DNA of 64,000 nucleotides from positions 1 through 64,000 of IMG/VR virus record IMGVR_UViG_3300042305_002088, one strand, 5' to 3'. The position numbers and the translations under genes are program-made. Under the pieces are notes generated by a model, which was not told the origin of the DNA, searched no databases, and worked only from the letters and a program-made list of their open reading frames with translations. Positions 5,089 through 7,179 of the stretch are shown here, piece after piece. This stretch comes from a virus. The stretch's first letter is position 1. Every line of letters starts with the position of its first letter.

Positions 5089-5170
5089 GGGTAGATCGCA
5101 TAGTGGCAATTGCCGAAGACTGTAAATCTTCTCTCTTTTGAGTTCGTAGGTTCGAGTCCTACTCTACCCA
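5089..5170 (+). tRNA. tRNA-Tyr(GTA)
   Basis: GGGTAGA/TCTACCC acceptor stem, GAAGA-CTGTAAA-TCTTC anticodon arm, long variable arm, TTCGAGT T-loop. Confidence 0.95.
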
Positions 5171-5184
5171 TTTTATTTTTAGAT

Positions 5185-5255
5185 TACCTCGTGGTGTAAT
5201 GGTAGCACAAGAGTTTTTGGCACTCTTTGTCATAGTTCGAGTCTATGCGAGGTAG
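5185..5255 (+). tRNA. tRNA-Gln(TTG)
   Basis: TACCTCG/CGAGGTA acceptor stem, AGAGT-TTTTGGC-ACTCT anticodon arm. Confidence 0.9.
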
Positions 5256-5298
5256 TTTTTAGTTGCATGTTCTAGCGAGTTCCGGTATATTATGAATC

Positions 5299-5484
5299 AT
5301 GAAATTAGATACAGCTATTCTCTTACTTCTTGCTTTTGGACTTATTGCCGGAAGCATTGTCTCAGAACTTCAGCATCGTCGAATTAAAGATTTGCAAACA
5401 CAAGTTGACGAGCTTAGAATCGTAGTTAATGAGAAATTTCTATCTTCTATGATTTTTGACAAATATAATTTAACTGTTCGATAA
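5299..5484 (+). CDS. small membrane-anchored coiled-coil protein
   Basis: N-terminal hydrophobic segment; promoter TTGCAT-17-TATATT just upstream. Confidence 0.6.
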   Translation: MKLDTAILLLLAFGLIAGSIVSELQHRRIKDLQTQVDELRIVVNEKFLSSMIFDKYNLTVR

Positions 5485-5524
5485 TATGGAAGATTTTGAC
5501 GGTTTAGGACTTTAATGATTTTCA

Positions 5525-5596
5525 GCTCTTATAGTTCAAAGGTTAGAACGGTCTGTTTATAACGGACGAATCTTGGTTCAAGTCCAAGTAGGAGCA
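5525..5596 (+). tRNA. tRNA-Ile(TAT)
   Basis: GCTCTTA/TAGGAGC acceptor stem, GTCTG-TTTATAA-CGGAC anticodon arm, CTTGG-TTCAAGT-CCAAG T arm. Confidence 0.88.
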
Positions 5597-6267
5597 GTTC
5601 TTAGGTAGCGCACCAATTTCCGAAAATGAACATCTGCAGCAAACTCAGGAGTACCTAATTTATGTTCAATAATAACATAATTGATATAACCACACTCTTC
5701 AATTGCTTTATACCTTAAATTGTCCCGATGTTTAATTTTATTAAGTAAACTAACACCAGCTATAGGTTTCCAGTGCCATGCACCGTTCCAATGTATAGCT
5801 ATTTTATAATCTGGTAAAATTATATCTGCATCAAAGCCATTAAACATTTTTTTATTTGTAATAATTTTTAATCCGTGATTGATAAGTTTTTGAGATAATA
5901 TTTTTTCGCCTTTACTTCGACTATTTCTTCTTTGCCATAAACCACCAAGTCGTTTTTCAGTCTCAATATTCACTCTTCTCTTTAATTCATTTCTACACTC
6001 TATACCACACATTGATACTCTAGAATATTTTTCATGATAAAATTTTTTATTGCAAATTTTACAAGTTTTAACAAAGACGTCGTTCTCTTTTGGAAATTTT
6101 CGCCCAATAAGATCAGCTCTTTTTTTAAGTGTTTCACTCTTTTTTAATTTAGTTAGTAAGGTTTGCGGACCTCTTTTAAGATTATTAAATATAGCAGAAC
6201 AAGTTTGAGAGCAAAATTTCTTACCATATTTACTGGCAATAATTTTATTGCAATTTATACAATTCAT
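5578..6267 (-). CDS. free-standing putative homing endonuclease: zinc-ribbon repeats plus a Vsr/DUF559-like nuclease domain
   Basis: CxxC...FCSxxC repeats; SKGEKIL...DADIILPDYKIAIHWNGAWH. Start 6267 follows a minus-strand TAAATA at 6273-6278. Confidence 0.75.
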   Translation of the reverse strand: MNCINCNKIIASKYGKKFCSQTCSAIFNNLKRGPQTLLTKLKKSETLKKRADLIGRKFPKENDVFVKTCKICNKKFYHEKYSRVSMCGIECRNELKRRVNIETEKRLGGLWQRRNSRSKGEKILSQKLINHGLKIITNKKMFNGFDADIILPDYKIAIHWNGAWHWKPIAGVSLLNKIKHRDNLRYKAIEECGYINYVIIEHKLGTPEFAADVHFRKLVRYLRTAPTWT

Positions 6268-6353
6268 ATTATTATTTAATGAGGCCATATAAAGGTTCAA
6301 GTACGTTCTTTGATAAAAATTTAATGGGGTGGTAGCTCAATGGTTAGAGCAGT

Positions 6354-6405
6354 TAAAGCTGGCTGCTTTGTATCGTGAGATACATTGTTTACAATATTAA
6401 AGTTG
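6354..6405 (+). ncRNA. 52-nt coreless group I-like mini-intron at tRNA position 28/29
   Basis: IGS AGCTGGCTGCTTT (6357-6369) pairs across the ligated junction AGAGCAGT|CGGCT with U.G at the 5' splice site; P2 TGTATC-GTGA-GATACA; ends in G6405; no P3-P8. Confidence 0.8.
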
Positions 6406-6413
6406 CGGCTCAT

Positions 6414-6625
6414 AATATTGTGACTTTATAGAGGGATCTATAATGAAAACTGGATGAATTCAGTGAAAGCCTAATAGGTCAACACTGAGCCAAGCTAAAG
6501 ATACATCTTTAGAAGGTGCAGAGACTACTGGAGAGGTTTAGTCCTCTTAATAACCAGAATTAGCGTCCGGCAACTCAAGTAGTTGAAGATATAGTCCACG
6601 GAGTTTGGTAACAAACACAAACGTA
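6414..6625 (+). ncRNA. 212-nt group I intron without an ORF at tRNA position 36/37; terminal nucleotide is A
   Basis: P1 TCAT/GTGA, P2 with GGGA loop, P3 CTGGATG/CGTCCGG, P4 TCAGTG/CACTGA, P7 GACTA/TAGTC, P8 CAACT/AGTTG, P9 GTTTG-GTAA-CAAAC, P9.0 ACG/CGT. Confidence 0.92.
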
Positions 6626-6671
6626 AATCGATTGGTTGTCGGTTCGAATCCGACCCGCCCCACCACTTTTC

Positions 6672-6743
6672 GGAATGGTAGCTCAACGGTAGAGCAGTAC
6701 CCTTTTAAGGTATTGGTTCTGGGTTCGAGTCCCAGCCATTCCA
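6672..6743 (+). tRNA. tRNA-Lys(TTT)
   Basis: GGAATGG/CCATTCC acceptor stem; GTACC-CTTTTAA-GGTAT. Confidence 0.95.
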
Positions 6744-6760
6744 AATTAAATAAACTTTAT

Positions 6761-6835
6761 TGACAAGTAGCTCAACGGTAGAGCAGAGAGCTGTTAACTC
6801 TCCGGTTGTAGGTTCGAATCCTACCTTGTCAGCCA
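6761..6835 (+). tRNA. tRNA-Asn(GTT)
   Basis: TGACAAG/CTTGTCA acceptor stem; GAGAG-CTGTTAA-CTCTC; encoded CCA. Confidence 0.95.
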
Positions 6836-6841
6836 CTTTTC

Positions 6842-6916
6842 GTCTCGTTCGTTCAACGGATAGGACAAGGCTCTTCTAAAGCCTCAATGTAGGTTCGATT
6901 CCTACACGAGACACCA
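6842..6916 (+). tRNA. tRNA-Arg(TCT)
   Basis: GTCTCGT/ACGAGAC acceptor stem; AGGCT-CTTCTAA-AGCCT; encoded CCA. Confidence 0.95.
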
Positions 6917-6960
6917 TTTCTATTTGCCAGTTCCTGCAATTTCCTCTAAATTAAAAATCT

Positions 6961-7098
6961 ATGCTTACTACACTACCGTTCGTTCTTTATATCGCCACTA
7001 CAATGCTTCTTTTTGGCTTTGTTTGTTATGCCATGGGGTATCTCAAAGGTCGTGATTACGAAACTATTGAGATCACTCGGGATAAAAAGACTAAATAA
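6961..7098 (+). CDS. 45-aa membrane peptide (below the ORF track cutoff)
   Basis: MLTTLPFVLYIATTMLLFGFVCYAMGYLKGRDYETIEITRDKKTK. Confidence 0.55.
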   Translation: MLTTLPFVLYIATTMLLFGFVCYAMGYLKGRDYETIEITRDKKTK

Positions 7099-7105
7099 AT
7101 TTAAC

Positions 7106-7177
7106 GTCGCCATCGTCTAACGGTTAGGACACATGGTTTTCATCCATGCAATCGGGGTTCGATTCCCCGTGGCGATG
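7106..7177 (+). tRNA. tRNA-Glu(TTC)
   Basis: GTCGCCA/TGGCGAT acceptor stem; CATGG-TTTTCAT-CCATG. Confidence 0.93.
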
Positions 7178-7179
7178 CT

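Follow-up and report, generated by a model that had tools for sequence, protein, structure and literature searches.

A complementarity between a coreless mini-intron and the guide of its group I neighbour may order splicing in a phage tRNA-Met gene

A tRNA-Met(CAU) gene in a virus raises the question of how two introns lying on either side of a very short exon, with only one catalytic core between them, could be removed in an order that keeps the exon. The window analysed here, 64,000 nt in length, is part of a 103-kb IMG/VR virus record and carries a tRNA cluster at 5089-7178. The split tRNA-Met region sits between tRNA-Ile(UAU) and tRNA-Lys, and ARAGORN calls no tRNA in this region when it is left unspliced. 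The gene is divided by a 52-nt coreless group I-like mini-intron and by a complete IA-like group I intron, referred to below as intron 2, with an 8-nt exon between them. A first-pass annotation of this DNA had proposed that the mini-intron pairs with the start of intron 2, and that the resulting helix holds intron 2 back until the mini-intron has been excised.

The exon and intron model on which this proposal depends proved correct when compared with intron-less alleles, which were gathered by scanning IMG/VR with a 21-nt D-arm segment and then reading the hits. An uninterrupted tRNA-Met gene is present in phage contigs L012, L013, L022, L024, L062, L042 and L049, where ...GAGCAGT is followed directly by CGGCTCAT and then by AATCGATTGGTT..., leaving exons 1, 2 and 3 contiguous. 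Exon 1 of the window is identical to the 5' part of the alleles in L012, L013, L022, L024, L062 and L042, and exon 2 shows no variation across the six two-intron copies described below. Two of these loci (L042/L188 and L049/L186) share the tRNA array of the window, Tyr-Gln-Ile-Met-Lys-Asn-Arg-Glu, and their Met gene is not split. Removal of both inserts in silico produces a canonical, perfect 76-nt tRNA-Met(CAT) according to ARAGORN, and no tRNA is found by this program when only one insert, either one, is removed. The model is thus confirmed by intron-less alleles in syntenic phage tRNA arrays, and the boundaries of the mini-intron are unambiguous because these alleles fix them. The two inserts lie side by side, parted by an exon that is kept in the intron-less alleles, and neither is placed inside the other as would be the case in a twintron. 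The coordinates of all features are collected in Table 1.

Table 1. Exons, introns, predicted helices and the inter-intron complementarity of the split tRNA-Met(CAU) gene, in window coordinates.
Feature	Position	Strand	Description
Exon 1 of tRNA-Met(CAU)	6326..6353	+	Acceptor 5' strand, D arm, positions 26-28; ends ..GAGCAGT
Mini-intron	6354..6405	+	52 nt, coreless; starts after U6353, ends G6405; boundaries from intron-less alleles
Mini-intron P1	6348-6353 with 6362-6367		AGCAGU/GCUGCU; U6353.G6362 wobble
Mini-intron P10 guide	6357-6361 with exon 2 positions 6406-6410		CGGCU/AGCUG
Mini-intron P2	6370-6374/6379-6383		5 bp, GNRA loop
Mini-intron P2.1	6384-6387/6392-6395		4-bp hairpin
Mini-intron tail	6396-6405		
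Inter-intron helix, 5' strand	6389..6399	+	Within mini-intron; overlaps P2.1 loop and 3' strand
Exon 2	6406..6413	+	Anticodon-stem positions 29-31, loop positions 32-36 including anticodon CAT; basis: intron-less alleles
Inter-intron helix, 3' strand	6413..6423	+	5' splice-site U6413 and intron 2 internal guide; invariant in six copies
Intron 2	6414..6625	+	212 nt, complete group I ribozyme, IA-like, P7.1 insert; RF00028
Intron 2 P1	GUGA 6420-6423		UCAU/GUGA; U6413.G6420 wobble at 5' splice site; invariant in six copies
Intron 2 P10 guide part	6417-6419		AUU; pairs with exon 3
Intron 2 P2	6427-6432/6437-6442		GNRA loop
Intron 2 P3	6450-6456/6564-6570		
Intron 2 P4	6460-6465/6483-6488		
Intron 2 P5	6469-6472/6476-6479		
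Intron 2 P6	6490-6491/6515-6516 and 6495-6501/6506-6512		
Intron 2 P7	6521 and 6523-6527 with 6592-6597		
Intron 2 P7.1	6528-6536/6543-6557		
Intron 2 P8	6571-6575/6581-6585		
Intron 2 P9.0	6598-6600/6622-6624		ACG/CGU
Intron 2 P9	6603-6607/6612-6616		
Exon 3	6626..6665	+	AA of anticodon loop, 3' anticodon stem, variable loop, T arm, acceptor 3' strand, encoded CCA; basis: intron-less alleles and ARAGORN on spliced sequence

The surroundings of the gene vary among related phages. The tRNA-Ile(UAU) at the same array position occurs in two unrelated forms, a 72-nt class I tRNA in the window (5525-5596) and in L093, and a 91-93-nt tRNA with a long variable arm in several close relatives (L054 530-620, L184 607-697, L186 3231-3323, L188 3409-3499). 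A 240-aa ORF on the negative strand (5578-6300), the end of which overlaps the tRNA-Ile 3' end, matches the phage homing-endonuclease families phrog_1271 and phrog_3339 and, weakly, Vsr. This ORF is missing in the other intron-bearing copies checked (L054 and L093), where tRNA-Ile directly precedes the split tRNA-Met, and its presence alongside the introns is therefore not obligatory. In a further contig (L048, 24-60), a tRNA-Met 5' half identical to that of the window through ..GAGCAGT is followed by unrelated sequence, with no tRNA-Met 3' half within 700 nt; gene truncation is one possible explanation, and what is left of a recombination event or attachment site at the exact mini-intron insertion position is another. 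Group I introns of another kind interrupt further phage tRNA-Met(CAU) genes between U33 and C34, one position family away, and these introns end in the canonical G (L011 4310-4560, L058 1189-1440, and L061 on the negative strand, from 10791 of the reverse complement).

The catalytic core of the locus belongs to intron 2, which matches RF00028 at 6402-6618 over model positions 1-253 with a score of 89.9 bits against a cut-off of 50, and in which a P7.1-type insert points to subgroup IA. All 84 pairs of its helix model (P1-P9) are paired in the six copies, with double changes at five of them, a count reached by 0 of 500 shuffles. The P2 loop reads GGGA, GAGA, GCAA or GUAA depending on the copy and is always of the GNRA type, and P7 contains the canonical G-binding pair G6523-C6596 with a bulged A6522. 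A canonical homologue of this intron was found in Escherichia phage Turkey5 (PQ471516; L103 528-835, about 289,050-289,360), where an unannotated tRNA(CAU) gene is split by a single group I intron. Both introns are inserted after CAU, share a P1 of UCAU/GUGA that is followed by CUUU, have a P2 with a GNRA loop and near-identical P3, P4 and P7, and place a 3-bp P9.0 directly before the last nucleotide. Turkey5 differs from the window in having one intron, without a mini-intron, and in ending it with a terminal G. In Turkey5, an HNH homing endonuclease gene follows the intron-split tRNA(CAU), and the Rfam alignment puts P1-P2 ahead of the 5' exon of the tRNA, which looks like a mis-alignment.

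The 3' end of intron 2 is unusual in that its last nucleotide is A6625 rather than the terminal guanosine (omega-G), because a canonical tRNA needs the junction A6625|A6626. P9.0 (ACG/CGU) lies immediately 5' of A6625, just as GUA/UAC in Turkey5 lies immediately 5' of the terminal G, and this shared register therefore places A6625 in the omega position and makes G6623 a part of P9.0 instead of the terminal nucleotide. Use of G6623 as the true 3' splice site was rejected, since it gives a 9-nt anticodon loop and is contradicted by the P9.0 register common with Turkey5. Alternative 5' splice sites were also rejected; a site after C6411, resulting in a CUA suppressor anticodon, gives no U.G wobble and no canonical loop, and sites after U6410 or A6412 give neither of these. 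The hexacoral mitochondrial ND5-717 intron offers a natural precedent, being a group I intron that is spliced although its last nucleotide is A; it is, however, organellar, with giant insertions and back-splicing, and is relevant to the 3' end of intron 2 only (PMC6545197). Because intron 2 ends in A and the mini-intron in G, the G site of the core would be expected to prefer G6405 over A6625, disfavouring skipping of the 8-nt exon.

The mini-intron has the features expected on the substrate side of a group I intron, with a U in a U.G wobble before its start, a P10 to the 3' exon and a terminal G. Positions 6357-6367 form an uninterrupted 11-nt guide that matches, by complementarity, exons 1 and 2 as they would be joined after splicing, and such a guide was found in 181 of 200,000 mini-intron shuffles (p about 1e-3). 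No catalytic core (P3-P9) of its own is present; the 52 nt consist of three small hairpins only, including a P2 with a GUGA loop, or GCGA in L054, and the RF00028 match starts at 6402. RF00028 and tRNA are the only Rfam families with a match at the mini-intron. Its P10 and the P1 of intron 2 make use of a common nucleotide, U6410, which pairs with A6357 in the former and with A6423 in the latter, so that the two pairings are usable only one after the other. An origin of the mini-intron by tandem duplication of the 5' part of intron 2 was considered and rejected, as 77% of shuffles align locally at least as well. The guide region AAAGCTGGCTG (6355-6365) does resemble J2/3 and the P3 5' strand of intron 2, AAAACTGGATG (6446-6456), at 9 of 11 positions, a similarity that is not significant as an alignment (p = 0.77), and it could mis-pair with the P3 3' strand of intron 2.

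The complementarity between the two introns was present as described in the first-pass annotation and proved longer. The strands TTACAATATT at 6389-6398 and AATATTGTGA at 6414-6423 are antiparallel and form nine Watson-Crick pairs and one wobble, U6390.G6422, to which RNAduplex adds A6399-U6413 as an eleventh pair. The helix encloses a 13-15-nt loop (6399/6400-6412/6413) that holds both G6405 and exon 2, in agreement with the claim that the terminal G and exon 2 are looped out. The segment that it was said to mask is indeed the guide of intron 2, as judged from the Rfam alignment and from the P1 conserved in Turkey5, and the helix covers this guide in its entirety (AAUAUU-GUGA) together with the splice-site U6413. 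Its 5' strand, UUAC-AAU-AUU, resembles the ligated junction UCAU-AAU, with UUAC in place of UCAU and AAU in place of the AAU of exon 3, and a decoy of intron 2 P1 and P10 is the most fitting description of the helix. In Turkey5 the P1 loop is CGACAAUG, compared with AAUAUU in intron 2, and therefore offers no decoy partner.

The degree to which this match exceeds chance depends on how the target is defined. With the 10-nt guide as a fixed target, at least 10 contiguous pairs were obtained in 1.6% of dinucleotide shuffles of the 52-nt mini-intron and the duplex energy was equalled in 0.8%, with corresponding values of 1.2% and 0.7% for genomic 52-mers of the same window. When pairing was allowed anywhere within the first 60 nt of intron 2, 14% of shuffles gave a 10-bp helix, and the palindrome AATATT, which occurs in both strands of the helix, supplies part of the match. 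With the guide as a target specified in advance, the helix is thus moderately above chance; without that premise it is unremarkable. The next-best duplex of the mini-intron tail, at -8.1 kcal/mol, is with the P8 region. An alternative helix between 6398-6408 and 6418-6428, also said to mask the guide, can form in the window (seven Watson-Crick and four G.U pairs), however its pair 6401:6425 is lost in five of the six copies, all five having A in place of T6425, and it was rejected as a conserved structure.

Folding predictions favour the helix over the local hairpins with which it competes. It excludes intron 2 P1, as both use 6413-6423, and it excludes P2.1, with which it shares 6392-6395. 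For the segment 6326-6445, a fold with mini-intron P1, P2 and P2.1 and intron 2 P1 and P2 has an energy of -18.5 kcal/mol, and replacing P2.1 and intron 2 P1 with the helix lowers this by 3.6 kcal/mol to -22.1 kcal/mol; the unconstrained minimum-energy fold includes the helix. In the full precursor, the predicted pair probability of the helix is 0.93-0.98 across the six copies, with values of 0.01 or less for both intron 2 P1 and P2.1. When the mini-intron is deleted in silico, intron 2 P1 rises to 0.46 and is part of the minimum-energy fold, and the helix and P2.1 are absent. The proposal that P1 of intron 2 is blocked for as long as the mini-intron is present thus holds in silico. In simulated growing transcripts, the helix takes over once 6421-6423 are present. 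These nearest-neighbour calculations leave out tertiary docking and usually under-predict P1 of group I introns.

Further copies of the locus were sought by IMG/VR DNA-pattern scans, a P3-P4 motif scan, a metagenome scan, a genome scan and synteny with a neighbouring 389-aa protein, resulting in six distinct two-intron copies: the window, L054 (= L094, L190), L093, L095, L097 and L098. Further candidates (L087-L092, L096 and L099-L101) were rejected as chance hits. The copies are 95-98% identical, each being about 95% identical to the window, with a mean column identity of 98%. Variable sites number 2 of 76 in the exons versus 26 of 264 in the introns, and all 16 variable sites at paired positions keep pairing; selection appears to act on the tRNA and on its splicing, since the exons vary less and the intron changes break no helix. 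The six intron-bearing copies all have the two inserts, and eight syntenic loci with an uninterrupted tRNA-Met have neither; these loci include phages whose neighbouring protein is 92-96% identical to that of the window, and the IMG/VR DNA-pattern scans returned no single-intron allele. This joint presence and absence fits a functional tRNA with the inserts behaving as one unit, and would also be expected if the mini-intron depends on the downstream core.

Comparison of the copies gives a divided answer for the helix itself, for which covariation had been named as a check. All 60 helix cells are paired across the six copies, with two one-sided changes, one at 6390, where U to C turns U.G6422 into C-G, and one at 6394, where A to G turns A-U6418 into G.U. 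This retention of pairing carries little weight, because a transition that faces U or G leaves the pair intact in any case. Among the six copies, whose high identity gives the comparison little power, the helix has no compensatory double change. The sole double change in this stretch, U6385C with A6394G in L054, converts U-A to C-G and is compensatory in P2.1. It is very likely, on this substitution pattern, that P2.1 is a selected structure at some stage of the life of the precursor, and if so, a stable and permanent helix in the precursor would be hard to maintain. A switch from P2.1 at an early stage to the helix once the guide has been transcribed is possible.

Taken with the folding predictions, these observations make a role for the helix in splicing order, as a timer or internal decoy for intron 2, plausible in a tentative sense. 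The first structures to form on the growing transcript would be mini-intron P1 and P2 and its weak P2.1 hairpin. As 6421-6423 emerge, the longer helix would displace P2.1 and pre-empt intron 2 P1, leaving P1 and P10 of the mini-intron as the only substrate helix available to the single catalytic core. Exon 1 would then be joined to exon 2, at G6405, and the excised mini-intron would carry the decoy strand away, allowing intron 2 P1 to form and a second splicing reaction to yield tRNA-Met. We infer helix formation in vivo, excision of the mini-intron by the downstream core and the order of these events; ordered use of one core is logical because the mini-intron has none. The compensatory change in P2.1, the lack of a double change in the helix and the AT-rich palindrome count against this timer, and an 11-bp helix might also stay bound after excision, delaying intron 2 rather than timing it. 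The broader picture, in which one core serves two substrate modules in sequence, is possible but on the doubtful side. The mini-intron, with its own P1/P10 guide, its terminal G and a junction decoy, would silence the intron 2 guide until excised; the terminal A of intron 2 would keep the G site free for the G of the mini-intron and prevent skipping of the 8-nt anticodon exon; and the mini-intron would be the first natural group I intron to depend on the core of a neighbour, with a programmed order.

A real possibility is that the complementarity is incidental, with P2.1 and intron 2 P1 as the functional structures. The helix would then owe its existence to AT-rich sequence and the recurring palindrome AATATT, would have no part in splicing order and would be at most a folding trap that is resolved by tertiary structure or chaperones. 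In favour of this, the one compensatory U-A to C-G change lies in P2.1 and not in the helix, and the helix has zero double changes. That helices of at least 10 bp within the first 60 nt of intron 2 arise in 14% of shuffles agrees with this explanation, and the unconserved alternative helix at 6398-6408/6418-6428 indicates that chance matches do occur here. However, the specific 10-nt guide is matched in only about 1% of shuffles, the match continues beyond the palindrome and takes in exactly GUGA and U6413, pairing is kept at both variable sites, and the helix is predicted to be dominant in every copy.

The helix could instead act as a scaffold, taking the place of intron 2 P1 beside P2/P3 and tying the mini-intron P1-P2 and G6405 to the core, thereby enabling the first excision. 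Such an arrangement would suit a mini-intron without its own core; the helix adjoins the same CUUU linker and P2 as intron 2 P1, and it closes a 13-15-nt loop in which G6405 lies together with the part of exon 2 to which the mini-intron guide pairs. The scaffold is nonetheless considered unlikely, as covariation support is absent among the six copies, P10 of the mini-intron may be sterically strained inside a loop closed by 11 bp with only about 2 nt on its 3' side, and P2.1, apparently selected, would be sacrificed during catalysis. The 3' terminal A of intron 2, in place of G, could also be read as a sign that the gene is a decaying pseudogene or that the 52-nt insert is not removed by group I chemistry, in which case the helix would be irrelevant to splicing. 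This is very improbable given the canonical U...G boundaries and 11-nt P1/P10 guide of the insert, exons far less variable than the introns, the 16 of 16 paired-site substitutions that keep pairing, the perfect 76-nt tRNA-Met obtained when both inserts are removed, and the precedent of a spliced terminal A in hexacoral ND5-717 (PMC6545197).

If the ordering role of the helix is true, a self-splicing RNA schedules two reactions with one active site by means of a pairing that the first reaction removes. This would be a natural irreversible RNA switch with a bearing on ribozyme evolution, in which an intron may lose its core and survive beside a neighbour, and it would shed light on how exon skipping is prevented between tandem introns; the design of RNA processing in several ordered steps could also draw on it. 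Should the helix be incidental, the finding shrinks to AT-rich complementarity within a gene that is remarkable in other respects; the one-core, two-intron system around the helix is unusual.

Tandem group I introns around a short exon have been described in Twort orf142, where introns 2 and 3 flank a 23-nt exon, and in the 23S rRNA of Coxiella burnetii, with a 34-nt exon, and exon skipping is a known risk in both (PMC10136302). As in these systems, two adjacent group I-type introns here surround a very short exon and their interplay would decide whether it is retained. In Twort and Coxiella, however, both introns have complete cores and exon skipping was observed, whereas the present exon is 8 nt in length and its upstream intron is a 52-nt element without a core. 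No description of an inter-intron helix for Twort orf142 or Coxiella 23S was found in the literature searched, and none was found there of a competitor strand that belongs to an adjacent intron without a core and is lost when that intron is excised.

Twintrons are nested introns in which the order of removal follows from reconstitution of the outer intron. The order proposed here is likewise an obligatory one for two introns in one transcript, however these introns are adjacent with an exon between them, and their order would come from a decoy helix. Alternative helices that compete with P1 are known to modulate group I splicing, as in the P(-1) hairpin of Tetrahymena pre-rRNA, and a c-di-GMP-II riboswitch remodels the 5' splice-site pairing of a Clostridioides difficile group I ribozyme. 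The inter-intron helix resembles both in being exclusive with P1 and sequestering a splice site or guide, thereby controlling whether or when the ribozyme acts. It differs from both in that the competing strand is located in a neighbouring intron and would leave by that intron's own excision, so that the switch, involving neither a ligand nor an exon hairpin, would be irreversible and would order two splicing events.
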